A stretch of 64,000 bases of DNA from Candidatus Shapirobacteria bacterium (lineage in GTDB: Bacteria > Patescibacteriota > Microgenomatia > UBA12405), in NCBI GenBank assembly GCA_030698565.1, contig JAUYJS010000005.1:90497-154496 (forward strand), given 5' to 3'. Position numbers and translations under genes: made by a program. Shown piece by piece: positions 18,351 to 45,300 of this stretch; positions within the stretch are counted from its first letter, which is position 1; every line of letters begins with the position of its first letter. The notes under the pieces were generated by a model that saw nothing but the letters and a program-made list of their open reading frames with translations, did not search any database and was not told where the DNA came from.

Positions 18351-19370
18351 TTAAATTTTACCAAGTTCTGGATAAATCGTAGCAATTGTTTTGAGTAAAT
18401 ATTTTTTTGCTTCATCAAGTGGCTTGCTTATAAGGGCACCGGCGGCTGCTTTGTGACCACCACCTGTTCCAAGGGCTTGGGCTATTTTGGAGACATCATA
18501 GACGTCTGGTTTACGAGTTCTAAAACTAACTTTAACTTTTTCTGGTTGATATTCAATTAAACTAATACCGATATCCCAACCGACGACGGATTTTAACATA
18601 TTGGCAACATTGAGACTTTCGGATGCCTGTAAATTCAAATGGCTATCTTGGAGGATTTTTTGAGACACGGAGGCGATAGCGACTTGATCTTTAAAATAAT
18701 TTTCTATGGAACTTAAATATAGAGCCAACATTTTGAGTTTGTCGGGCGATTCGTTATTTTCAATTTCAAAAATGGTTTTTGGGAAATTGTCGTTGATTTT
18801 TGCGAGTTCGGCACAAATTTCAAATGTTTTACTGGTAGTACGGGGATATTTGAAACCGCCACTATCGGTGTACATACCCGTAAATAGACATAAAGCCATG
18901 TTTTCGTCGATTTTAATATTCCCCTGTTTATAAACCTCGTAAAGAATTTGGCAGGTGGCTGGAGAGTCTTTGTCGACTAAATTAATTTGAGCAAAGTTTA
19001 GATTGGTGTCGTGGTGGTCAATAATTATTGTTTTTAAATTTGAGGGAAATTTAATTTCACCCAAATTGGATATTAGATTTGGAGCGCTGGCATCTAAGAT
19101 TAAAAATAAATCAAATTTTTTGAGATCGATTTGAAATAAATTTTTATTTAAAATTTTGTCGGTGCCGGGTAAAGATAAGAGATTGGGAGGTAAACTAGAA
19201 TCACCGGAAATTAAGGTAACATTTTTTTTGAGATGTTTGAGAGCAAACATAAAAGACAAGGCACTACCGACGCTGTCACCATCGGGCCCTGGATGGAGAT
19301 GAAGAAGAATATTTTTGGAATTATGGATAATATCCCAAATTTTGATTATTTTTTGTGTATTGGTTTTCAT
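18351..19370 (-). CDS. nrnA: DHH/DHHA1 phosphoesterase (NrnA-like nanoRNase/pAp phosphatase)
   Basis: HLHPGPDGDSVGSALS, IIDHHD and C-terminal GGGHKAAAG are present. Confidence 0.8.
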   Translation of the reverse strand: MKTNTQKIIKIWDIIHNSKNILLHLHPGPDGDSVGSALSFMFALKHLKKNVTLISGDSSLPPNLLSLPGTDKILNKNLFQIDLKKFDLFLILDASAPNLISNLGEIKFPSNLKTIIIDHHDTNLNFAQINLVDKDSPATCQILYEVYKQGNIKIDENMALCLFTGMYTDSGGFKYPRTTSKTFEICAELAKINDNFPKTIFEIENNESPDKLKMLALYLSSIENYFKDQVAIASVSQKILQDSHLNLQASESLNVANMLKSVVGWDIGISLIEYQPEKVKVSFRTRKPDVYDVSKIAQALGTGGGHKAAAGALISKPLDEAKKYLLKTIATIYPELGKI

Positions 19371-19380
19371 TAATTTATTT

Positions 19381-19434
19381 TACCCGAACTTGGGATAACA
19401 ACATTTTTTTGAAATGACACAGGAAATGTAGACT
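19381..19434 (-). pseudogene. Startless fragment encoding ...KKCCYPKFG*, a copy of the SEC-C zinc-finger tail of secA
   Basis: On the minus strand, 19381-19412 aligns 25/32 nt with the real secA 3' end at 21059-21090, including a perfect 15-nt core TTGGGATAACAACA. In frame it reads TVYISCVISKKCCYPKFG-stop, preceded by an in-frame stop and no ATG. Confidence 0.45.
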
Positions 19435-19465
19435 GTTTAGATTTATCATTTCAAAAAGTTTTTTA

Positions 19466-19750
19466 TTAGAAATTATTATTATCTTTAATTTTGTTTAATA
19501 TTGATAAGGTGGCTTTTATGGAGGAATTATCTATGTTGCGTAGTTGAATCCGTTTACTAAATTGTTTACTAAGTGGAGTTAAAAATTCATCAGCCCATGA
19601 TGGAGTTAAAACTATAACACCTTCAAAGTCGATAATAACTTCTTCATTTTTATTAATTTGATTAAGCATTGGTCTGAAAGCTAATAAAGCCTCTTTTCCA
19701 GAAGGTCTTGATACTAAAGTAGTTCCAAATTTTTTAAGTTGTATAATCAT
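19466..19750 (-). CDS. Hypothetical protein, possibly DUF4325/STAS-like
   Basis: 94 aa starting MIIQLKKFGTTLVSRPSGKEALLAFRPML...IIDFEGVIVLTPSWADEF. The resemblance is weak and from memory. Confidence 0.35.
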   Translation of the reverse strand: MIIQLKKFGTTLVSRPSGKEALLAFRPMLNQINKNEEVIIDFEGVIVLTPSWADEFLTPLSKQFSKRIQLRNIDNSSIKATLSILNKIKDNNNF

Positions 19751-19769
19751 TGTGTTTTTTCAATTTTTA

Positions 19770-20075
19770 TTACAGCAAAACATCTCTGGTTTCGCAATAA
19801 ATTTGGGGATCTAATTCAAATCCGTTCTGAGATTGAACCCATTCAATCGCCATATTGCGGTAATTTGTTGCTGAATTCAATTTAGCTTCAACATCTGAAA
19901 ATTTATAAAATCGATGTCCATGTGGACCGGTCCTAACTGATGAAAACTTGCCTAATCTATCCCATCTTCTGAGAGTGTCTATAGAAATACCTAATAACTC
20001 AGAAACCTCTCCTATTTTTATTAATTTGGAACTCATAATTTTATTAATCTGTATAAATTTTATCAATCTATTCAA
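19770..20075 (-). CDS. MerR/excisionase-family helix-turn-helix DNA-binding protein
   Basis: KLIKIGEVSELLGISIDTLRRWDRLGKF is the HTH_17/MerR-type excisionase-family motif. Confidence 0.65.
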   Translation of the reverse strand: MNRLIKFIQINKIMSSKLIKIGEVSELLGISIDTLRRWDRLGKFSSVRTGPHGHRFYKFSDVEAKLNSATNYRNMAIEWVQSQNGFELDPQIYCETRDVLL

Positions 20076-20160
20076 ATCTGTGCAAGTTTACTATTAATCT
20101 ATATAAATCTATGCAAAATATATTAAAACTATGCAAATCTATGCAAAATTTAGACTTTTT
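20041..20160. repeat. Iteron-like cluster of short direct repeats (AATCTRTGCAAA x4 and TATTAATCTRTATAAAT x2)
   Basis: Read directly from the sequence: tattaatctgtataaat at 20042 and tattaatctatataaat at 20092; atctgtgcaag, atctatgcaaaa, actatgcaaa and atctatgcaaaa between 20076 and 20150. It lies immediately upstream of the excisionase-like HTH gene. Confidence 0.6.
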
Positions 20161-20249
20161 TTAAAAGTTGGAAATGTAAAGTTCGGGTATAAATGGGTTA
20201 AACTTCATAAATATTACTCATCTTATCTTTAATAAAGATATAATAAATT

Positions 20250-20468
20250 ATGAAAATATTAGTAATAGTTCATCCAAATTCAAAAAATCCAAGAGTTGAG
20301 AAAGATTTAGTAGAGATGTTGCATATTTATGTAAGTGCACCACCGTTGGAAGGAAAAGCTAACAAGGCTACAATCGAATCACTGGCTAAATTCTTGAAAG
20401 TTAAAAAATCGAAGATAATTTTAATACGAGGAGAAAAATCAAAGAATAAGGTATTTGAAATTGGTTGA
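20250..20468 (+). CDS. DUF167 (YggU/UPF0235) family protein
   Basis: 72 aa: MKILVIVHPNSKNPRVEKD...VSAPPLEGKANKATIESLAKFLKV matches the YggU-like family. Confidence 0.6.
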   Translation: MKILVIVHPNSKNPRVEKDLVEMLHIYVSAPPLEGKANKATIESLAKFLKVKKSKIILIRGEKSKNKVFEIG

Positions 20469-20506
20469 TTTTATAAAATTACTTGCTTTGTTGAAAGGAT
20501 TTAGAA

Positions 20507-20992
20507 CTAATTAATGTCATTTAAACTTTTAACAATATCTAAATCGTTTTTACCTCGTTTTTCTTTTCTGTAACCATCTTTAGAACTGAAAGTGTAGGCA
20601 TTAATAAAAGCTTGTTTATTCAGTGTTTTAATTAATATTCCTTCTTTGTGATGTATTTGAATATCCTTTTTTGGATCACAAATATTGTCCTTAATAAGAA
20701 TACTTTTTTTAGTAAAAGCAATTTTTAAATCCTGTTTATTTATAAATTCATGTTCTTTGCTGTCAATTAATTCAAAACCATTATTTTTCATAATTTTAAT
20801 CAGATCTAACCATTTATCGCTTAAATAAACATCCTCAACAAGAAGATCTATATCATCAAAATTTTTAAAATTACCAAGATAAATTGAAACTCCTAATGAA
20901 CCATACAAAATTGAATCTATTTTATTTTCTAATAAAAAATTATTTACTTTCTGATAGTTTTTTAAATCAACAGCCATGAGTGGATTATACAA
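20507..20992 (-). CDS. Minimal nucleotidyltransferase-fold protein
   Basis: GSLGVSIYLGNFKNFDDIDLLVED fits the GS-x(9-13)-DxD Pol-beta-type NTase signature. Confidence 0.5.
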   Translation of the reverse strand: MYNPLMAVDLKNYQKVNNFLLENKIDSILYGSLGVSIYLGNFKNFDDIDLLVEDVYLSDKWLDLIKIMKNNGFELIDSKEHEFINKQDLKIAFTKKSILIKDNICDPKKDIQIHHKEGILIKTLNKQAFINAYTFSSKDGYRKEKRGKNDLDIVKSLNDIN

Positions 20993-21058
20993 GAGTTTGA
21001 TTTCATTCTGAGGATAATCGTTTTGTTTACTTTGAATAAATTATTATTACGCTCTATT

Positions 21059-23719
21059 TTATCCAAGTTTGGGATAACAACACTTTTTATATTTTTTACC
21101 GGAACCGCAGGGACATGGATCATTGCGGCCGATGATTGATTTGTTTACTGGTGTCGTACTTTTCTTAGATATGCTTGTTTGATTTTCAGATTGATTAGCA
21201 TCATTTATGTCTCCCCTGCCCTCAACTATTGTTTCCGGAATTACATCGGTAGGCATTGAGATTGGTTCCAATCTAAATATTTTTCTGGCTAAATTATATT
21301 CAAATTGACGCATCAATTTTTGGAACATTTCATAACCTTCTTTTCTATATTCGATTAATGGATCTTTTTGAGCGTAACCTCGCAATCTGACACCGCTTCT
21401 TAAATCATCTAAAGCTGTTAAATGTTCCACCCAGAGTGGATCAAGAGTAGTAATAACTGCATAAGTTAAAATACTATTGGCAATATCTTTGCCAAAATAA
21501 GAAAGCCGTTGTTCCCATTGGTCTTTTATTGTTTTAGTCAAAAACTCATTAGGGTTTGGTTCATTTTGAAGTTGTTTTTTAATTTTTTGACGTTGATCGT
21601 CGTCCATGGGAAATATTTCAGAAAATTCCAAGGCTACTTTTTCAAAATTGATTGTGCCATCGGTATCTTCGAGACCGCTTTTCATTATGAAGTTAATTTC
21701 GGAAGAAAGATATTTACTAACTTCTTTCCAATTATTGTCGACCGAAAACTGACCATTATATAAAGACAAATCCCTTAGGGAATAAATTATTTTTCTTTGT
21801 TTATTGATAACATCGTCGTATTCGACCAAATTTTTACGGGCATCAAAATTAAAACCTTCGACTTTGACTTGAATTTGTTCGATGATTTTGGAAACTAGCG
21901 GATGAGTTAATGGAGCATCATCGGGCATATTGAACCGAGTCATCAGACCACTAATCTTTTCGCCACCAAAAATTCTCATTAAATCATCGTCAAGAGCGAC
22001 ATAGAATTGGGAAACACCCGGATCGCCTTGGCGGCCAGCACGACCTCTTAGTTGATTATCAATTCTTCGAGATTCATGTCTTTCGGTACCAATTACATAT
22101 AAACCACCTAAAGAAATTATTTTATCGTGATCTTTTTGCCACTCCTTTAGATCTACTCCATCTTTTGGTCCGCCTAAAATAATGTCAACGCCTCTACCGG
22201 CCATATTTGTGGCCACTGTTATGGCGCCAAATTTACCTGCTTTGGAAATTATTTTGGCTTCTGCTTGGTGATTTTTAGCGTTTAAAACTTGATAAGGCAG
22301 ACCTTTTTTTGCTAACAAAGAAGATATTGTTTCGTTTTTTTGAATAGAAGTAGTACCAATCAGTACTGGTTGGCCTAATTTGTGTAATTGTTCAATTTGA
22401 CTAACTATTGCCGTGTATTTGGCTCTTTGACTTTTGAAAATTAAGTCTTGAAAATCATTTCTCTGAATTAATCGTTGAGTAGGAATAGTAATTACATCAA
22501 GATTGTATATTTTTTTAAATTCTTCGGCTTCGGTCGCGGCAGTACCGGTCATGCCCGCTAATTTTTTATAAAGACGGAAATAATTTTGAAAAGTAATTGT
22601 GGCCCAAGTTTGAGATTCTCTTTGAACGGTAACATTTTCTTTGGCTTCAACTGCTTGATGAAGACCATCGGACCAGCGACGACCGTTCATAAGACGACCA
22701 GTGAATTCATCGACAATAATTATTTCATTGTCTTTGACAACATAATCTCTGTCTTTATGAAATAAAGCCGTAGCTTTGATAGCATTTTCAACATAATGGA
22801 TTGTCTCAAAAGATTCTTCGTATAGGTTTTTAACTCCTAAAATTCTTTCGATTTTCCTGATGCCATATTCAGAAAGAGTAGCTGATTTAGTTTTTTCATC
22901 AATTATATAATCAGTGGGCTGAAGTTGAGCCGCAATTTGGGCAAATTTATAATATTTATCGACTGGCTGATTGTTGGGTGAGGAAATAATTAATGGTGTT
23001 CTGGCTTCATCAATTAATACAAAATCGACCTCATCGACAACAGCAAAATTGTGGGGTCGCTGAACCATTTGATTAAAATCGGGCACCATGTGGTCGCGTA
23101 AATAATCAAAACCAAATTCATTGTTCGTACCATAAGTAATGTCAGTTTGATAAGCCTCTTTGCGAGAAACCGGCCTTAGGTGGGCCAAACGATCATCGAT
23201 TGTTTCGTTTGGATCAGTGAAATTGGGATCATAGATAAAAGATCCTTCGTGGATGATACAAGAAGTGCTAATTCCTAATTTCTGGAGTGCCTTTGGATAC
23301 CAACCAGCACCGACTCGGGTTAAATAATCATTTGGGGTAACAATGTGAACTCCCTGCCCAGAAAGCGAATTAAGATAAGCCGCAAAAACAACAGAATGAG
23401 TTTTACCTTCTCCGGTTCTTTGCTCGGAAATTGCTCCTTGGTGAAGTGAAATGGCCGACATCAATTGAACATCGTAAGCTCGTTCACCAATAGTTCTTTT
23501 AATGGTTTCACGGACAACAGCATAAGCTTCTGGAAGAATATCATCTAGGGTTTTGCCGTTATTTAATTGTTTTTTAAATTGGGTAGTTTTTTCGGAAAGT
23601 TTTTCATCACTTAAAGAAGAAAAATTTTTCTCTAAGCTATTTATTTTGTCGATAATCGCCTTATATGAGCTAATTCTTTTTCGATTTTCATCAAATAAAT
23701 TTTTTACGAAATTTAGCAT
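21059..23719 (-). CDS. secA: Preprotein translocase ATPase SecA
   Basis: DEAD-like motor motifs, 886 aa, and the C-terminal SEC-C zinc finger [14 protein letters not shown]. Confidence 0.95.
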
Positions 23720-23805: not shown

Positions 23806-25068
23806 TTAAGTGGTTTCGATAATATCGAAACTGGTAAATGGTTGTAAGACTTTGGGAATACAAATACTGCCGTCTTTTTGTTGGTGATTTTCAATAATGG
23901 CGATTACTGCCCTGTCGGTAATTACTGTGGCATTGAGGATATGAACATATTCATTTTTACCTTCGATTTTGGTTTTTATGTTTAGTCTTCTAGCTTGATA
24001 ATCACCGCAGTTACTGCACGATTGAGTTTCTCTAAATGTATCTTGTCCGGGAAACCAAGAATTGATGTCGTACATGCGTCGGTTGGGTTGGGGTAAGTCT
24101 CCGGTGCATGCTTTGACGACTTGATAGGGAATTTCCAAAGATTGCATTATTTCTTCTTCAATAGAAAGTAATTCCAAACACATGGCGTCAGAAATTTTAT
24201 AATCAGGAGTAGAAAAAACATTCATTTCAACTTTATTGAAAGAATGAACTCTAAAAACTCCTCGAGTATCTTTACCATAAGTGCCGGCTTCTCGCCTAAA
24301 ACAAGTAGAATAATTTACATATTTAATTGGTAAATTTTTGGAGTCTAAAATTTCGTCCATATGGTATGGCACAACAGAATGCTCGGAACTACTGATAAAA
24401 ATTAAATCATCTTCGGGGAAAGAATAATAAGCATTGTCTAGATTTTTGTTGCTAGTATAGCCCATTTTTTCTTCTGATTCTATTTTGACCATGGCGGGTG
24501 GAATCATGCCAACAAAACCTTTTTGGATAAGTTTTTGGAAGGCAAAATTCATGACAGCCATTTCTAAAACTGCGCCTTTGCCCTTGAAATAACCAAATCG
24601 AGAACCGGAAACTTTGGCGGCTCTTTTGACATCAATAATGTCGAGTTTTTCCCCTAAATCAATATGGTCGAGTGGTTTGAAATCAAATTTTGTTGGTTGA
24701 CTAAACTCGTGAAATAAAACATTTTCTGAATCGTCTTTACCAACAGGAACATCGGAGGCAACCATGTTGGGAAGTTCTTTTAGAATATTATTTTGTTTTT
24801 CTTCAAGTTCTTTTAATTCAGTTTCTTGGACTTTTAATTTTCCTTTTAAATCGGTTGCTTCTTTTAATTGATCATCGGTGGGCTTGCCTTTGAAATTTTT
24901 GGCTAATAAATTTTGTTGAGATCTAAGTTCTTCGACTTGAGTCAAAACCGATCTCCTTAATTTATCGATTTCTAAAATTTGATCTACTAATTTAGGACTC
25001 CGTTGACGGTTTATTAAGTTCTGCTTAACTAATTCGGGTTGTTGTCTAATTAAATTTATGTCGATCAT
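23806..25068 (-). CDS. serS: Seryl-tRNA synthetase
   Basis: N-terminal coiled-coil arm (MIDINLIRQQPELVKQNL...) and a class II core (FRREAG..., motif 3 region). 420 aa. Confidence 0.9.
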   Translation of the reverse strand: MIDINLIRQQPELVKQNLINRQRSPKLVDQILEIDKLRRSVLTQVEELRSQQNLLAKNFKGKPTDDQLKEATDLKGKLKVQETELKELEEKQNNILKELPNMVASDVPVGKDDSENVLFHEFSQPTKFDFKPLDHIDLGEKLDIIDVKRAAKVSGSRFGYFKGKGAVLEMAVMNFAFQKLIQKGFVGMIPPAMVKIESEEKMGYTSNKNLDNAYYSFPEDDLIFISSSEHSVVPYHMDEILDSKNLPIKYVNYSTCFRREAGTYGKDTRGVFRVHSFNKVEMNVFSTPDYKISDAMCLELLSIEEEIMQSLEIPYQVVKACTGDLPQPNRRMYDINSWFPGQDTFRETQSCSNCGDYQARRLNIKTKIEGKNEYVHILNATVITDRAVIAIIENHQQKDGSICIPKVLQPFTSFDIIETT

Positions 25069-38891: not shown

Positions 38892-40436
38892 GTGTTAACA
38901 AAGATTTTCAGCGTGGCAAGTATTGGACTAAAAGCGATTGATATCGATGTGGAAGTAAATGTGGCAGAAATGGGTTTTCCGGGATTTGGGATTGTTGGTT
39001 TAGCTAGTAAAGCGGTTGAAGAATCGAAAGAAAGAATTAAAACTGCGATCGTAAATTCGGATATTGAGTTTCCAAATAAAAAAATTACGATTAATTTGGC
39101 TCCAGCTGACATACCAAAAGAAGGCTCTTGCTATGATTTGCCCATGGCTATAGGAGTAATAGCGTCTACGGGTGAGGTTAGATTGCCAAGTGAAAAATCA
39201 TATTTTTATGGAGAACTTTCTTTGGATGGAGGTCTAAGACACACCAAGGGCGTATTTTTGTTAGCAATTTTAGCCAAAGAACAGGGAATTAAAAATATAT
39301 TTGTACCTCGTCTTTGCGCAAATGAAGCAAGTGTAATTGAAGGTATAAAAGTATTCCCGGTTGACAGTTTAAAAAGTCTTATTAGACATTTAAATGGCGA
39401 TAAATTAATTCAACCACTAATCACAATTGATAAAGAAGAGTTGATTTTTGAAGCCGAACCAGAATTTGATTTTAGTGAAATTTTGGGGCAAGAACAGGCA
39501 AAAAGAGCATTGGAAATTGCGGCGGCTGGAGGACATAACATTTTTATGATGGGGCCACCTGGATCAGGAAAAACAATGCTTTCCCGAGCATTACCAGGTA
39601 TTTTACCTATACTAACCGAAAAAGAAAGTTTGGAAGTTACTAAAATTTATTCTATTTCTGGAAACATTCCTCCAGGCGGTTCTCTGGTTCGTCGAAGACC
39701 GTTTAGATCACCCCATCATACAACTTCACAAATTGGATTAATTGGCGGTGGGAGTAACCCCAGACCTGGTGAAGTGTCTTTGGCTCACAGAGGCGTACTT
39801 TTTTTGGACGAATTTCCTGAGTTTAATCGGCATACTATCGAGGCTTTGAGACAGCCAATTGAAGATGGCAATATAAATATTTCCCGGGCTAGTGGATCGG
39901 TAAATTATCCAGCCCAATTTATGTTGGTAGCTTCGGCAAATCCTTGCCAGTGTGGGTTTTTGGGCGATACCAAAAAGGAATGCAAATGTAATGTTCACCA
40001 GATTCTAAATTATCAAAGAAAACTATCTGGACCAATTATGGACAGAATTGATTTGCATTTGAATGTACCAGCTGTAGATATAAATAAATTAATGATATTG
40101 CCGGATAAGAATGAAAATAGATCGGCTAAATCAAGTGATATTCGAAAAAAAGTGATGGATGCTCGTGAAATTCAAACACAAAGATTTAAAAATACTAATA
40201 ATCTTTACAGCAATTCTGATATGAAAAATATTCACTTAAAAGAATTTGCCAATATGACCAACGAAGCCAATTTATTATTAAAACAGGCAGTTAATAAATT
40301 TTCTCTGTCAGCCCGAGCTTATTTTAGATTGATAAAAGTGTCGCGAACTATTGCTGATTTGTCGGCTAGTGAAGCTATTTTAGATAAGCATGTGGCCGAA
40401 GCACTTCAATATAGAATCAGATCAGAAAGCGTATGA
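38892..40436 (+). CDS. comM: YifB/ComM family Mg-chelatase-like AAA+ ATPase
   Basis: N-terminal Lon-like domain (FSVASIGLKAIDIDVEVN) and an AAA+ core with Walker A and B, GGHNIFMMGPPGSGKTMLS ... LFLDEFPEF. 514 aa. Confidence 0.85.
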   Translation: MLTKIFSVASIGLKAIDIDVEVNVAEMGFPGFGIVGLASKAVEESKERIKTAIVNSDIEFPNKKITINLAPADIPKEGSCYDLPMAIGVIASTGEVRLPSEKSYFYGELSLDGGLRHTKGVFLLAILAKEQGIKNIFVPRLCANEASVIEGIKVFPVDSLKSLIRHLNGDKLIQPLITIDKEELIFEAEPEFDFSEILGQEQAKRALEIAAAGGHNIFMMGPPGSGKTMLSRALPGILPILTEKESLEVTKIYSISGNIPPGGSLVRRRPFRSPHHTTSQIGLIGGGSNPRPGEVSLAHRGVLFLDEFPEFNRHTIEALRQPIEDGNINISRASGSVNYPAQFMLVASANPCQCGFLGDTKKECKCNVHQILNYQRKLSGPIMDRIDLHLNVPAVDINKLMILPDKNENRSAKSSDIRKKVMDAREIQTQRFKNTNNLYSNSDMKNIHLKEFANMTNEANLLLKQAVNKFSLSARAYFRLIKVSRTIADLSASEAILDKHVAEALQYRIRSESV

Positions 40437-40807
40437 AACAACTTAATTATTTAAAAGGTAAAAATGGTGAGTTAATTGCCAAAAACTATCTTTTGGAAAA
40501 AGATTATAAATTTGTAGAGCAGAATTACAAAAATTATTTGGGCGAAATTGATTTGATTATGAGTTTTAGAGATATTTTAGTTTTTGTAGAAGTTAAATTA
40601 AAAGTCGGCAATAGATTTGGTTTACCAGAGGAAATGATTAACAGAAACAAAATTAGTAGAGTCAAAAGAGTGGCTGAAAGTTATTTGGTGTTGAATCCAA
40701 TAATATCTCAAAATTATAAAAAATACAGATTGGATGCGATTTGTGTGGTGGTCAATGAATTGAATTGTATCAAAAGAATTAATCACTACAAAAATATTGA
40801 ATTTTAA
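40433..40807 (+). CDS. yraN: YraN-family (UPF0102) endonuclease
   Basis: GELIAKNYLLEKDYKFVEQNYK...GEIDLIM...LVFVEVK is the YraN signature. It overlaps comM by 4 nt. Confidence 0.75.
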   Translation: MKQLNYLKGKNGELIAKNYLLEKDYKFVEQNYKNYLGEIDLIMSFRDILVFVEVKLKVGNRFGLPEEMINRNKISRVKRVAESYLVLNPIISQNYKKYRLDAICVVVNELNCIKRINHYKNIEF

Positions 40808-41693
40808 TATGAGATATTGGAAAAAATGGCCTATTAACCAGATCAATGTAGATGATGAAAGATTTCCGAAATATTTAAAATCGATTAAAACATGTCCTAA
40901 AAAATTATTTTTTAGAGGTAATTGGAACTCAAATATTTTTGAAAAAACTATTGGCGTGGTTGGCAGTAGACGAATTACCAGATATGGCCGTGATGTAATT
41001 GCAAAATTTGTACCAACTTTTGTCGGTAATAAAATTACAATAATTTCTGGATTCATGTATGGAGTCGACAGTGAAGCTCATAAAACATGTGTTGAAAACG
41101 GTGGAAAAACGATAGCTGTTTTAGGCGGTGGACTTAATTATATTTATCCTCCGGAAAATGATAATTTATATTCTTTGATTTTAGAAAACGGCGGATTAGT
41201 ATTGTCTGAATACGAAGCTGATTTTAAACCAACTTTATGGAGTTTTCCTCAAAGAAATAGAATTGTATCGGCCTTATCGACCATAGGAATTCTGGTTATT
41301 GAAGCTGGTTTAAATTCAGGCAGTTTAATTACGGCAAAAATTGCCAAAAAGCAGGGTAAAAAAATATTTTCAATTCCGGGTCAAATTAATTCTTCAACGT
41401 CTACTGGAACTAATTGGTTAATTAAAAATTATAATGGGATTCTGGTGAGCAGTCCTGATGATATTTTGGAGAGTAGTTTTAAAATTAACGCTACTCAAAT
41501 TGATTTGTTTGAGCCGGATTTAAGTGAGATTGAAAGAAAAATAATCGGTTTATTGAAGAGTGAAGAATTAAGCGTCGACGAATTGTCGATTAAATTAAAT
41601 TTAGCAATTGCTGATATTTCAATTAATTTATCAATGTTATTAATGAAGAATTTGATTGAGGAAGAAGCGGGGAAAGTTTATTTAAAAAATTAA
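40797..41693 (+). CDS. dprA: DNA processing protein DprA (Smf)
   Basis: The Rossmann core GVVGSRRITRYG...ISGFMYGVDSEAHKTCVENGGKTIAVLGGGLNYIYPPEN is present. It overlaps yraN by 11 nt. Confidence 0.85.
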   Translation: MNFNMRYWKKWPINQINVDDERFPKYLKSIKTCPKKLFFRGNWNSNIFEKTIGVVGSRRITRYGRDVIAKFVPTFVGNKITIISGFMYGVDSEAHKTCVENGGKTIAVLGGGLNYIYPPENDNLYSLILENGGLVLSEYEADFKPTLWSFPQRNRIVSALSTIGILVIEAGLNSGSLITAKIAKKQGKKIFSIPGQINSSTSTGTNWLIKNYNGILVSSPDDILESSFKINATQIDLFEPDLSEIERKIIGLLKSEELSVDELSIKLNLAIADISINLSMLLMKNLIEEEAGKVYLKN

Positions 41694-42830
41694 TTAAAGA
41701 TACGGTGCCCAATTAGCGATCGGGGCGACATTGCCAACAACAAAGTTGATGGCATATAGAATAATGGCTGGCAAAAGTAATAGAAAGACGACCTTGAAAT
41801 ATGTTTTGGTTAATGGGTTTTTGTAAGCTAAAAATAAGAAAGGGTAAACCGGAGCAATGTAGCGACTAATATCGCGATGAGCTACTAATAAAGTAGCAAA
41901 AGTAAAGACGACCGGATAAACGGCGATTATATCGAATTTATACTTTTTGATTAATCGATAGACACCATAAAGCGCCAAAAGATAAATATAAACTACATCC
42001 TCTAACCAAATAGTATTTATCCAAGATTTGGTGCTGATAAAAACTAAATATGGCAATTTGTTTAAATGAAAATTATCGCCACTATGAAAATAAGCCCAGA
42101 AGTCACCTGTTTCTAATTTGTAAAAGTAAAATATGCCAAGAACAGTCAATGGCATTAGAACGAACGCCCAATATTTTTTCAAGACCTGTGCAAGGTTTTT
42201 GGTTTTAATAAGTTCATAAATAGCTAAAATGCCATACGATATTAAAAGAAGGATTCCAGGACTTTTGAATAATTGACTCATGGCAGCAAAAACCGCCGCG
42301 AGAAAATATTTTTTATTTTTAAAATAGATGATCGAGGCTAAGGTACTAAATATAAACCAGCTTTCGGGAGCGCCGATTTGACGTAGGACAAATAATCTGG
42401 CGGGGAAGAAAATCAAAAGTGCGGCAAGCCAGAAAGCTTTTGATTCTTTCATAAACATTTTGAAAAATTCAAAACTGACCAATGAGAGAATGATAGAACC
42501 CAAAAGAGAAGAAAATAACATGGCTTTGGGGCCGGTGGTAAAGAGATTAAGGGCACTGATCAACAAGGGGAACCCGGGTAAATGGGCTGGGTAATATTCA
42601 AGAGGTTGGGGTAAAGAAAAATTTGGCCCGATACAGTTCTTGTCATAGCCGCACTTGGAAATGACCATGTAGTTGGGACCATCGTAATTAGCAAAGACAG
42701 TTTCCAAAGTAACATTGGGAAAACCAATTTTGGAAGGAATGTTTTTGTAGAAGATAAACCAGAATAAAAGTGTCGAAGTAAGAGTAATTAAGGCTAAGAC
42801 ATAATATTTTGAAAATTTGGTAAAATGCAT
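41694..42830 (-). CDS. Polytopic membrane protein, possibly a GT-C-like glycosyltransferase
   Basis: 378 aa with about 10 TM helices. No diagnostic motif is seen. Confidence 0.4.
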   Translation of the reverse strand: MHFTKFSKYYVLALITLTSTLLFWFIFYKNIPSKIGFPNVTLETVFANYDGPNYMVISKCGYDKNCIGPNFSLPQPLEYYPAHLPGFPLLISALNLFTTGPKAMLFSSLLGSIILSLVSFEFFKMFMKESKAFWLAALLIFFPARLFVLRQIGAPESWFIFSTLASIIYFKNKKYFLAAVFAAMSQLFKSPGILLLISYGILAIYELIKTKNLAQVLKKYWAFVLMPLTVLGIFYFYKLETGDFWAYFHSGDNFHLNKLPYLVFISTKSWINTIWLEDVVYIYLLALYGVYRLIKKYKFDIIAVYPVVFTFATLLVAHRDISRYIAPVYPFLFLAYKNPLTKTYFKVVFLLLLPAIILYAINFVVGNVAPIANWAPYL

Positions 42831-42851
42831 CTATCTGATTGTACAATATCT

Positions 42852-42923
42852 GGCCCCATCGTCTAGTGGTTCGGACACCAGGTTCTCATCCTGGTAACCG
42901 GAGTTCAATTCTCCGTGGGGTCA
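42852..42923 (+). tRNA. tRNA-Glu (anticodon CUC)
   Basis: Cloverleaf read manually: acceptor GGCCCCA/TGGGGTC, D-arm GTC-TAGTGGTTCG-GAC, anticodon stem CCAGG/CCTGG with loop TTCTCAT (CTC), T-arm CGGAG-TTCAATT-CTCCG, discriminator A. No CCA is encoded. Confidence 0.8.
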
Positions 42924-42986
42924 CACTTTTTTTTATAGGTCAAAAACGTGAAGATACCCTATATTTTGCTTATTTTCACGGTTATG

Positions 42987-43015
42987 TTGACAAAATCGTG
43001 AATAATCTCTATAAT
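42987..43015 (+). promoter_or_regulatory. Consensus sigma70 promoter TTGACA-17nt-TATAAT, 8 nt upstream of the Fic ATG (leaderless transcript likely)
   Basis: TTGACA at 42987-42992 and TATAAT at 43010-43015 with an exact 17-nt spacer. CGTGAA half-sites lie at about 42957 (inverted as TTCACG at about 42975) and 42997, overlapping the promoter. Confidence 0.5.
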
Positions 43016-43023
43016 TTGAGCAT

Positions 43024-43902
43024 ATGACTAAAATATCTAATGTTTTTAATAAAATAAATTCGCTTCGTCAAAGATATTATCAAGCTTTTAATGGTAAAGA
43101 TGCCCTTATTCAGCTTATTAGCGAGTCGGAAGTGGCTGAACAAGTTTATAATTCTAATGCTATTGAAAATAGTACTCTGACTCTTGAAGAAACTGAAAAA
43201 ATTCTTTTACAGATTGATTTGGACAGGTATATTACTGAACGGGAAATTTTTGAAGCTAAGAATTTGGCTCGAGTGGTTATTTATATAGATAAGAAAGCTA
43301 AAGAACAAGAACTTAATTTGGAGATGATTTTATCGCTTCATAAAATGCTGATTTCTAATATTCGAGATGATATTGCTGGAAGATTTAGAAAAGAAAATGA
43401 ATTTGTTCGAGTCGGTAGTTATATTGCTCCAAACCCAAAAGAAGTGATTGAGAGGCTTGAAAAAATGTTATCTGAATATAATGCCAGTAATAATGAAAAT
43501 ATTATTAAGCGTATTGCTCGTTTACATTTAACATTTGAATGTACTCATCCTTTTATTGATGGTAATGGTCGAATTGGTAGAGTTATTAATAACTATTTAT
43601 TAATAAGGGAGGGATTTGTACCTATAAATATAAAGTTTATTAATCGACAAAAATATTATGATGCTTTTAAGGAGTTTGAAGAAAAACAGACAACAACAAT
43701 TATGGAAGATATAGTAGGAAAAGCATTAACTAATAGTTATTATAAAAGATTAGCTTATTTAGAAGGTAAAAAAATCATCACTTTAATCGATTATGCTAAT
43801 AATAATAAACTTTCACACTCAAACCTTTTAAATAAGGCTGGTAGACAAACTATTGAAGCTTTTTTAGAAAAAAATGTTTGGAAAATTGGGGTTGATCAGT
43901 AA
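43024..43902 (+). CDS. Fic/Doc family protein (putative AMPylator) with an N-terminal autoinhibitory motif
   Basis: The canonical Fic motif HPFIDGNGRIGR, that is HxFx(D/E)GNGRxxR, is intact. The N-terminal SNAIEN matches the (S/T)xxxE(G/N) inhibitory-helix motif. Confidence 0.85.
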   Translation: MTKISNVFNKINSLRQRYYQAFNGKDALIQLISESEVAEQVYNSNAIENSTLTLEETEKILLQIDLDRYITEREIFEAKNLARVVIYIDKKAKEQELNLEMILSLHKMLISNIRDDIAGRFRKENEFVRVGSYIAPNPKEVIERLEKMLSEYNASNNENIIKRIARLHLTFECTHPFIDGNGRIGRVINNYLLIREGFVPINIKFINRQKYYDAFKEFEEKQTTTIMEDIVGKALTNSYYKRLAYLEGKKIITLIDYANNNKLSHSNLLNKAGRQTIEAFLEKNVWKIGVDQ

Positions 43903-43981
43903 AAACTTGTCCATTTTTCTGTATAAATTATATATACAATATTTTCGTTAATAAAATAAATAATTTCAAAATTAAATATTA

Positions 43982-44008
43982 GAGTTCGATTCTCCGTGGG
44001 GTCACACA
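43982..44008 (+). repeat. attR-like direct repeat of the tRNA-Glu 3' end
   Basis: GAGTTCGATTCTCCGTGGGGTCACAC (43983-44008) against GAGTTCAATTCTCCGTGGGGTCACAC in the tRNA (42901-42926), 25/26 identical. Confidence 0.65.
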
Positions 44009-44133
44009 TTGGGACTAAGGTACTACTAAATGGTGGTTTTATTCCTAAATATGGGGCTAATTTTGGAGTTCCAGAAGTTAAATCTGAGTATGTAGGTGGA
44101 CTATCAAAGATAAGACCAAAGAAGGCAGCTCTT

Positions 44134-45300
44134 TTAAGTAGCTGTTTTAAATTCGTTTAAGATGGTTTCCCTAACCATTTTTGAATTTTCATTATCAGCA
44201 CCTAAATGTGCTTGGTTATGCATAGAAAAAACCTTGTTCAAAATTCCACTTTTACGGTTTTTATTGGTGGTCCTTCTTAAATCACCGGGGAGTATTTGTC
44301 TTCCTCTCTTAACGAAATATCTAACCATTTTTAGAACTTCTTGGTCTTTATAATTTATTAAAATTGTTTTAATAACTCTTTCGATTTCGGCCGGTTCTCC
44401 TGTTCCTTTTGATCTTTGAATTTCCATGAAAGCCGTACTAATTAAAAGTTCAACAATGTCGATTGCCTTTTGTTCTCTTTCAATAATTTTCTTTACCCTA
44501 CCTTTGGCAATATCTATCTCTCCAACCTTTAATGTTATGTTTTCGGCTTCCATTTCTAATTTAAAAGCTTTTTCTTTCTTTACAATTTCAACCATTTGTT
44601 GATGCAAGGAATCTGTTCTTCTTTCTGACGGAGTAAGAATTATATCGGGAATATTTAGAACTGGATTTGAAACTTTCACTGCTTCTATTTCGGGGTGTTC
44701 TGAATCAGGTGTTGTCTTTATTGTTTCAGCATTTTGAAACATAACATCGCCTACGATGTCTCCTATTGGTCCAAATTGTTGGTGAACTGAGTCTATATAT
44801 TTTGTTTCCTCTGCAAGCGCCTGAAATCTATCTATCGCTTGTAATTTGGATGATCCAATTTTGTTTGCTGCAAAAATATCGGCAATAGCAATTCCTTTTG
44901 TGAGTATTTCAGGTTTTTTAATTACTATACCGTCTTTATATGGACCGTAATATTCGGATAGCCCGAGCCTTTCCACATTTACAGCAATTTCTTCTGGTGT
45001 GCCGCGTCGTCTCATAGGTTCTGCATGAAACACAAACCCTAATAATTTACCAAAATGATTTTTAGCCATACTTATAAAATCCTGTACATAATGATCGTCC
45101 CATTGTCTTAGGATCCTATCACCCCAAACATCTATTTTATCTATAAAACTAGAATGCATGTCGTAGACCAACTCGCCGTTTATGGTTTTCAGCTTTCCAC
45201 CGTAAACTCCAACTGTGCTCTCATAATCACTCGACGGAAGTGAATTTTTCATTAATTTATTTGATGCTTCTGAAATTCCTCTAGCTATTCTTTCTGCCAT
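44134..45300 (-). CDS. Hypothetical protein (388 aa), slightly GC-richer than its surroundings
   Basis: Long uninterrupted ORF with no recognisable motifs. It is adjacent to the Fic islet. Confidence 0.4.
   Translation of the reverse strand: MAERIARGISEASNKLMKNSLPSSDYESTVGVYGGKLKTINGELVYDMHSSFIDKIDVWGDRILRQWDDHYVQDFISMAKNHFGKLLGFVFHAEPMRRRGTPEEIAVNVERLGLSEYYGPYKDGIVIKKPEILTKGIAIADIFAANKIGSSKLQAIDRFQALAEETKYIDSVHQQFGPIGDIVGDVMFQNAETIKTTPDSEHPEIEAVKVSNPVLNIPDIILTPSERRTDSLHQQMVEIVKKEKAFKLEMEAENITLKVGEIDIAKGRVKKIIEREQKAIDIVELLISTAFMEIQRSKGTGEPAEIERVIKTILINYKDQEVLKMVRYFVKRGRQILPGDLRRTTNKNRKSGILNKVFSMHNQAHLGADNENSKMVRETILNEFKTAT

Follow-up and report, generated by a model that had tools for sequence, protein, structure and literature searches.

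Genomic islands, integrative and conjugative elements (ICEs), integrative and mobilizable elements (IMEs) and cis-mobilizable elements (CIMEs) insert themselves at the 3′ ends of genes for tRNAs or proteins and restore the end of the gene that they hit. Free-standing homing endonuclease genes are found beside conserved genes, and homing normally leaves no duplicated target. For C-terminal displacement and orphan arrays at rhs, contact-dependent inhibition of growth (CDI) and type VI secretion system (T6SS) effector loci, homology-facilitated illegitimate recombination (HFIR) with displaced 3′ remnants has been proposed (PMC5361080); the HFIR sources cited there include Jackson (2009), de Vries & Wackernagel (2002) and Prudhomme (2002). 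Here, an insertion at the 3′ end of secA in Candidatus Shapirobacteria (Microgenomates; candidate phyla radiation, CPR) is described and compared with these systems. The window, meaning the whole stretch of DNA that was analysed, comprises 64,000 nt (positions 90,497–154,496 of contig JAUYJS010000005.1, assembly GCA_030698565.1). An earlier note on this DNA had read the segment between secA and nrnA, hereafter the patch, as a decayed integrative or replicative element that had left a duplicated secA tail.

On the minus strand of the window, serS (23806–25068) is followed by secA, the patch, nrnA, HIT and DUF5665, after which BipA lies on the plus strand. The window SecA is 70–75% identical in amino-acid (aa) sequence to SecA of many Shapirobacteria metagenome-assembled genomes (MAGs). 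The comparative set consisted of 80 secA loci from reference genomes; secA and nrnA are both present in 31 Shapirobacteria loci, and in these the order serS–secA–nrnA–HIT–DUF5665–BipA is kept. The arrangement of the window was recovered in two independent Sequence Read Archive (SRA) assemblies, one spanning both junctions (L001) and the other the nrnA-side junction (L002), and is therefore not an assembly artefact.

A repeat search showed that the 3′ end of secA (21055–21088) recurs in the same orientation at 19376–19409, 1,679 nt away, with 29 of 34 positions identical (85%). The repeat extends 4 nt past the stop codon. The exact core shared by the two copies is TTGGGATAACAACA, which measures 14 nt and not 15 nt as first claimed; the 25/32 match given in the earlier note (19381–19412 against 21060–21091) was reproduced. 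The next-best match of the 34-mer in the whole window, on both strands, was 24/34, and no match better than 26/34 arose in 300 second-order Markov simulations of the window, so that the tail repeat is not due to chance. Translation of the nrnA-proximal copy in the secA frame gives *I*TVYISCVISKKCCYPKFG* (asterisks denote stop codons), with an in-frame stop upstream and no ATG, GTG or TTG, in agreement with the orientation, missing start codon and preceding stop described earlier.

The polarity of the event was fixed using a JGI contig from a close relative (L134), the nrnA product of which is 94% identical in aa sequence to that of the window. In a global alignment the two sequences are 80–98% identical at the nucleotide level over ~4.2 kb except for a single gap of 1,679 bp (window ~19411–21089). 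The secA stop of L134 lies 9 nt from the nrnA ATG, which is the spacing between the displaced tail and nrnA in the window. The L134 tail, AAAAAATGTTGTTATCCCAAGTTCGGCTAA, matches the displaced copy at 29/30 positions and the live copy at 25/30, and the clade consensus for the end of SecA is ...KFG*, while the live secA of the window ends in ...KLG*. The copy beside nrnA is therefore the original end of secA, and the ...KLG* end now in use was brought by the insert. The patch is a recent insertion within the last ~30 nt of secA in this Shapirobacteria lineage, by which the gene end was regenerated and the native end displaced.

A second empty site was found in L135, and secA abuts nrnA in 16 loci in total (L134, L135 and 14 others); in 14 of the 31 Shapirobacteria loci the distance from the secA stop to the nrnA start is between a few and ~50 nt. 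No homologs of the four patch genes were found in any of the 80 secA loci, and the patch is present only in assemblies whose genes in this region match the window at 99–100% aa identity. Its GC content is 22–30%, against 32–40% in the flanks. The earlier note had proposed alignment of the nrnA–secA region in relatives as a check and had named a patch syntenic in all of them as the result that would speak against insertion. When this alignment was made the empty sites confirmed the insertion, the patch was not syntenic in relatives, and both the adjacency of nrnA and secA without it and the reading of the duplicated tail as an insertion scar held. A metagenome scan with nrnA gave only relatives of ≤50% identity, uninformative for the junction; another search listed 642 nrnA homologs with E up to 1e-60. 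Within nrnA, two stretches (19130–19013 and 18410–18353) show zero synonymous differences from L134 and lie beside stretches in which ~40% of codons differ; this mosaic pattern indicates probable homologous recombination between these lineages. Feature coordinates are presented in Table 1.

Table 1. Features of the secA–nrnA region in the window (strand of each feature as read in the window; a point marks features without strand).
Feature	Position	Strand	Remarks
secA	21059..23719	-	886 aa; Pfam SecA_DEAD, P-loop_SecA, SecA_SW, SecA_PP_bind, SEC-C
Live secA tail, repeat copy 1	21055..21088	-	Distal part …AAACTTGGATAAAATA (Leu-Gly-stop) insert-derived; 25/30 to L134
Inserted segment	19411..21089	.	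1,679 bp; placement ambiguous by repeat length
NTase-fold protein (predicted)	20507..20977	-	156 aa; 161 aa if the reading frame starts from TTG at 20992
DUF167/YggU-family protein	20250..20468	+	72 aa; PF02594 70.6 bits (cut-off 30.9); TIGR00251 72.7 bits
Direct repeats, ~10–12 nt, TTTGCATAGATT on the HTH sense strand, seven copies	20046..20147	-	Immediately upstream of the HTH start
MerR-type winged-HTH protein, no effector domain	19770..20036	-	88 aa; PF00376 47.8 bits (cut-off 28.2); called 88 aa in L001
DUF4325 (STAS-like) protein	19466..19750	-	94 aa; PF14213 33.6 bits (cut-off 23); 20 nt downstream of the HTH gene
Inverted repeat, 12 nt perfect, 28-nt loop	19406..19457 (arms 19406–19417 / 19446–19457)	.	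Abuts right junction
Displaced native secA terminus (…SKKCCYPKFG* + 4 nt)	19376..19412	-	Non-coding; 9 nt upstream of the nrnA ATG
nrnA, conserved right-hand neighbour	18351..19370	-	DHH/DHHA1 phosphoesterase by Pfam

Unrelated inserts of 0.4–3.9 kb were found at the secA–nrnA junction in 17 of the 31 Shapirobacteria loci. The cargo elsewhere comprises GlpX, class II fructose-bisphosphate aldolase (FBA), CorA, PP2C, Fic, a major facilitator superfamily (MFS) protein, histidine phosphatase and a PMT_2-like protein; L136 also carries CorA, and ~18 loci in all bear such cargo. Tail displacement has taken place at least five times and in no fewer than three lineages (L023, L025 and L032 besides the window), and the retained remnants measure ~20, 30, 34, 36 and 82 nt. 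Three tails are present in L023: the live ...CHYPETN*, a complete NDPCWCGSGKKWKKCHYPELQ* 46 nt before nrnA, which falls within an 82-nt repeat (76/82, 93%), and HYPETQ* 2 nt before nrnA. L032 has only the last two L023-type tails, 44 nt apart with a hairpin between them. In L025 three tails bracket two successive inserts. The first of these (L025:3013–3651, minus strand) is an HNH_repeat + HNH homing endonuclease gene on the opposite strand which overlaps the secA stop (L025:2990–3056), the second encodes a 113-aa protein without assigned identity, and the live secA tail has been remodelled, its SEC-C motif carrying a 6-residue insertion (CWCG-KTNADGKPV-KWKHCHYP). This first insert, at the same site, is the point of likeness to free-standing homing endonuclease genes; unlike these, the window patch encodes no recognisable endonuclease and its target is duplicated.

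The 70-nt insert-internal ends of four events were compared and showed no common motif, as no pairwise local alignment reached the 95th percentile of the shuffled controls. The sequence downstream of secA in the Microgenomates loci outside Shapirobacteria yielded no duplicated SEC-C tail, and a literature search returned no paper on integration at the secA end. Some further observations were made at and around such sites. The two tail remnants at L032:10659–10735 and L023:11398–11468, ~44 nt apart, have a GATCC...GGATC hairpin between them that is common to both genomes; the pair may represent a very small insertion or what was left when a larger insert was deleted. At L075:10271–10920, in Microgenomates outside Shapirobacteria, the sequence encoding GLIGAKEHRG* after secA is repeated ~580 nt downstream (25/33 nt), and this is not a SEC-C tail. 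Elsewhere in the window, at 41694–45300, a tRNA-Glu gene (42852–42924) is flanked by two ORFs without Pfam matches (378 and 388 aa) and a Fic-domain gene (43024–43902), and this region may be another variable spot.

The DUF4325 and DUF167 assignments made previously for the patch both stood, with Pfam scores above the cut-offs (Table 1). For the 156-aa protein, Pfam gave no match of its own and a weak Lnu(C) match was obtained (18.9 bits); it is 100% identical to a protein of an NCBI Shapirobacteria MAG. A G26-S27...D42-x-D44 motif is invariant across 26 homologs. The AlphaFold model (pLDDT 92.3) was matched by Foldseek to TM1012, LnuA, MenT1 and ANT(2'') with E values of 5e-6 to 6e-4 and, for TM1012, LnuA and MenT1, template-modelling (TM) scores of ~0.62–0.69. 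The fold search was needed, a sequence-profile search of the PDB with the alignment of homologs having given nothing meaningful. The motif hG[GS]...[DE]x[DE] and the modelled fold point to a minimal nucleotidyltransferase (NTase), as the earlier note had proposed, with a Pol-β-like fold. Homologs of 43–83% identity occur singly in unrelated chromosomal contexts in Collierbacteria, Shapirobacteria and other Patescibacteria, never beside secA, and on these sequence comparisons the patch as a coherent element is not supported. A motif of ~17–20 nt (TAGTTCGAAAATCGNCC / TTAGTTCTGAAACCGTTCC) directly follows the stop of NTase-like homologs in several Patescibacteria (L084, L086, L087, L089, L137 and L138) and is also found before the NTase-like gene (L087, L084 and L137) and after the next small gene (L137). 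It resembles a cassette-boundary or terminator-like repeat, and one diverged copy follows the NTase stop in the window (20490–20510).

The small helix–turn–helix (HTH) protein belongs to the MerR type, and this part of its earlier description as a MerR/excisionase protein was upheld; for the excisionase or Xis-like part the scores stayed below threshold (HTH_17, 26.3 against 27 bits; TIGR01764, 21.7 against 28.8 bits). The best NCBIfam match was BldC (NF033787) at 29.7 bits against a cut-off of 77. The protein is not a member of the BldC family and is at most BldC-like in its working. It is 26–31 residues shorter at the C-terminus than its orthologs L090:703–1047 and L091:291–650 (114 and 119 aa) and may be truncated. 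PADLOC returned mad1 (44.9 bits), a generic HTH match; the patch was rejected as a defence system, this generic match and a marginal PtuA fragment being the only hits. Scans of viral contigs with the HTH, NTase and DUF4325 proteins gave no informative matches, and an Rfam search of 18800–21600 with E up to 1 gave nothing.

The earlier note had also described a dense cluster of iteron-like direct repeats upstream of the HTH gene. The cluster itself was confirmed. AATCTRTRYAAA occurs four times in the window, only at 20046–20147, against 0.3 expected, and seven copies with ≤2 mismatches start at 20046, 20065, 20075, 20096, 20106, 20126 and 20136. They form three pairs phased by 10 nt and one single copy, with the pairs ~30 nt apart, and the cluster ends 10 nt before the HTH start codon, 640–950 nt from either insert junction. 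The search for further copies suggested in the note was run within the window: the degenerate motif was found nowhere else, and at relaxed stringency the count was at chance level, with near-exact copies only at the HTH gene. A promoter-like site (20066–20038) overlaps the repeats; the promoter scan as a whole was not above chance.

Only three homologs of the HTH protein were found, including those in L091 (80% identity) and L090 (68% identity, in a much GC-richer genome). GCATAGATT repeats lie just upstream of both of these orthologs, in the same orientation and in unrelated contexts, in which there is no secA, integrase or Rep. In L091 five copies of the motif precede the gene, a count reached in 0 of 200 shuffles, and in L090 a DUF4325 homolog also lies downstream of the HTH ortholog. 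Since the repeats stand upstream of orthologs in unrelated contexts, they are read as an operator and not as a replication origin: they are a cis element of the HTH module, probably the autoregulatory operator of a MerR/BldC-like protein. We infer that the cluster is not part of the insertion machinery and provides neither a replication origin nor att arm sites. The iteron role was thus not sustained, the repeats travelling with the HTH gene and no Rep family being matched in the patch. BldC-type effector-less MerR proteins bind tandem direct repeats head-to-tail (PMC5859096). The window protein resembles BldC and the small winged-HTH proteins of the λ Xis type in consisting of an 88-aa MerR domain without an effector domain and in having candidate cognate direct repeats phased by 10 nt, with BldC as its best NCBIfam match. 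It differs from BldC in its far lower score, in an extra C-terminal segment and in its pairing with a DUF4325 STAS-like gene, and repeat binding is here a prediction.

Genes for recombination machinery were sought in the four patch ORFs and 30 further window ORFs (Pfam) and among the genes annotated in L001 (~window 7.3–21.8 kb). Neither the patch nor any of the ~50 window ORFs examined gave a match to a Phage_integrase, resolvase, transposase or Rep family, so that the cognate integrase or Rep gene for which the earlier note had suggested a search did not appear there. The two tRNA genes of the window lie far from the patch. The window does contain DprA (40797–41693) and a ComM-like Mg-chelatase ATPase (38892–40436), with a 124-aa ORF between them (40433–40807); on sequence similarity these two would provide recombination functions of natural transformation. 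Competence components (ComEC and pili) are widespread in CPR (PMC6744442). Both points speak for a mechanism that needs no integrase of its own.

The insertion is best accounted for by HFIR, that is by recombination anchored in the conserved secA gene combined with an illegitimate join at the far end and no dedicated integrase; we give this a probability of about 0.5. Donor DNA consisting of a secA 3′ region and accessory genes would have been taken up from another Shapirobacterium. Its secA part would have paired with the highly conserved recipient secA as the homologous anchor, and its non-homologous far end would have been joined illegitimately at a CAAAAAA microhomology inside the recipient tail. 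What entered is a mosaic block of 1,679 bp, with an NTase-fold gene, a DUF167 gene and an operator–HTH–DUF4325 module; the incoming SEC-C tail (...CCYPKLG*) now ends secA, and the native ...CCYPKFG* has been pushed 1.68 kb downstream, where it remains as a remnant 9 nt before nrnA. The right junction does lie in a CAAAAAA run common to the insert end and the native sequence, this run being of low complexity, and the junction-proximal arm of the 12-nt inverted repeat carries the A-run that joins the two. A conserved anchor gene on one side and a displaced native 3′ remnant on the other are found here and again in L023, L025 and L032. HFIR is favoured because there is no integrase among the ORFs examined, because the cargo is heterogeneous, with metabolic genes included, and the patch genes do not form a unit elsewhere, and because remnant lengths vary, common arms are lacking and the right junction falls in the shared run.

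The locus resembles C-terminal displacement at rhs, CDI and T6SS effector loci in that the conserved 5′ gene body serves as the anchor, the incoming DNA brings a new 3′ end with cargo while the old 3′ end persists downstream as a remnant, and successive events stack remnants (three tails each in L025 and L023). It differs in that the gene encodes an essential housekeeping ATPase where those loci have a polymorphic toxin, the new tail keeps the same SEC-C zinc motif and is equivalent in function, instead of being a new toxin domain, the cargo consists of miscellaneous accessory and metabolic genes and not immunity genes, and the displaced pieces are only 20–82 nt long. Several points weigh against HFIR. 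A donor in which secA(...KLG*) is followed by the NTase gene was not found among the 80 secA loci. Divergence from L134 at fourfold-degenerate sites is 72/157 (0.46) for secA, 25/111 (0.23) for nrnA, 15/38 (0.39) for HIT and 19/34 (0.56) for DUF5665; as it is also high in HIT and DUF5665, a donor tract with a clean end at the junction does not emerge, and the pattern is a mosaic one. As evidence, a microhomology of a 7-nt A-run is weak in a genome of 30% GC. The remnant starts within ~15 nt of the same place (KK/WKK codons) in three of five events, which a site-specific enzyme could also give, and the perfect 14-nt core between diverged arms has the appearance of a classical att core. The recombinase search was confined to ORFs within 64 kb of the genome, and a trans-acting recombinase could lie elsewhere.

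These last points belong to the tentative alternative of site-specific integration, the type of model proposed in the earlier note, in which a decayed or trans-mobilized CIME- or IME-like element with an attP mimicking the secA 3′ end was inserted by a tyrosine or serine recombinase encoded elsewhere. Crossover in the 14-nt core TGTTGTTATCCCAA would have given attL (the live tail) and attR (the displaced tail), and the hypothetical circle junction would be DUF4325 end–TCAAAAAAATGTTGTTATCCCAAACTTGGATAA–NTase side. Such an origin would explain why the insert sits exactly between direct repeats whose core is perfect and whose flanks have diverged, why the gene carries a regenerated end with its native 3′ end displaced, as in islands that target 3′ ends, and why the independent L023, L025 and L032 events lie at the same few codons, with remnant starts within ~15 nt of each other in three events; the patch also encodes a small HTH protein of the MerR/Xis superfamily. 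It is opposed by the absence of an integrase from the patch and from every window ORF examined, by excisionase scores below the cut-offs and by an HTH-gene repeat cluster that lies 640–950 nt from the junctions and accompanies its gene in non-secA contexts. The patch genes moreover occur separately elsewhere and have no relatives on viral contigs, the four independent inserts have no common arm motifs, and the repeat length varies from ~20 to 82 nt. In comparison with the 3′-end islands, ICEs, IMEs and CIMEs, the locus shares attL/attR-like direct repeats, a gene end restored by the element, an insert of low GC content and an empty site in relatives (L134, L135 and 14 further loci); it departs from them in having no integrase, above-threshold excisionase, relaxase or Rep, in the small size of the insert (1.7 kb), in genes that do not travel together elsewhere and in independent inserts at the secA site without conserved att arms. 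The feature thus looks like the scar of a 3′-end-targeting island but does not qualify as an integrative element, no tyrosine or serine recombinase lying in or next to it among the ~50 window ORFs, or as an iteron replicon. Of the reading in the earlier note, the insertion and its duplicated-tail scar are upheld, and a decayed integrative or replicative element with Xis and iterons is not supported. A stronger version, in which Ca. Shapirobacteria use the SEC-C codons of secA over and over as a dedicated attachment site and tiny integrase-less cassettes with replacement tails are inserted serially by a trans-acting recombinase, is unlikely.

Campbell-type homologous integration, in which a circle carrying a short secA 3′ fragment and the cargo is taken in through one RecA-dependent crossover within the tail of secA, is likewise regarded as doubtful. 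Its topology would be identical to that observed, with the shared segment present as a direct repeat on both sides of the cargo, excision between tail repeats in a different cell could supply the circle, and the 82-nt, 93%-identical repeat of L023 has the length that RecA needs. The window repeat, 34 nt at 85% identity with a 14-nt perfect core, is nevertheless below the usual minimal processing segment of RecA, transforming DNA enters as linear single strands, and neither a circular form nor a second copy was seen. An ancestral patch that L134 and the other relatives lost by precise recombination of the tail repeats is very improbable: a precise deletion through direct repeats is possible and L134 is the only close relative at hand, but the secA–nrnA junction is tight in 16 loci across the clade, the 80 secA loci hold no patch-gene homolog, the patch is of low GC content and confined to assemblies 99–100% identical in aa sequence here, and the duplicated tail would still need an original insertion. 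The fragment at 19380–19412 was also considered as the end of a frameshifted YecA-like gene, the earlier note having named the C-terminus of another SEC-C protein as the finding that would overturn its reading. This was rejected: the similarity covers only 10 codons, the match to the L134 secA tail is 29/30 and the spacing of secA to nrnA is kept, so that the fragment is the original end of secA. In AT-rich, low-complexity sequence from a metagenome-assembled genome one might suspect similarity by chance or a chimeric assembly, but the probability of either is negligible. Chance similarity of the tails was ruled out, with 29/34 against a simulated maximum of 26 and a displaced copy that is in frame, ends on a stop and keeps the ancestral spacing to nrnA; the two independent SRA assemblies speak against a chimera.

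The insertion is a further example of a type of event already known, here at an unusual site, the SEC-C tail of an essential CPR gene; the recurrent hotspot is a modest addition. The insertion scar is ordinary in kind and current understanding is not overturned. The locus provides a clean, dated gene gain in an ultra-small CPR genome, in which the relative with the empty site places the insertion to the nucleotide, and its polarity can be read from the displaced end. The small MerR-type protein and the GCATAGATT repeat array form a protein–DNA pair that is open to test. If the unlikely case of a dedicated attachment site were true, an integron-like or CIME-like cassette system would be anchored in an essential CPR gene, with the stacked dead tails of L025 and L023 as its record. 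The secA–nrnA junction is a hotspot of the clade, with different cargo in about half of the loci and stacked dead tails in at least three lineages, and conserved essential genes may serve as recombination anchors for gene flow in organisms that are thought to depend on DNA uptake.

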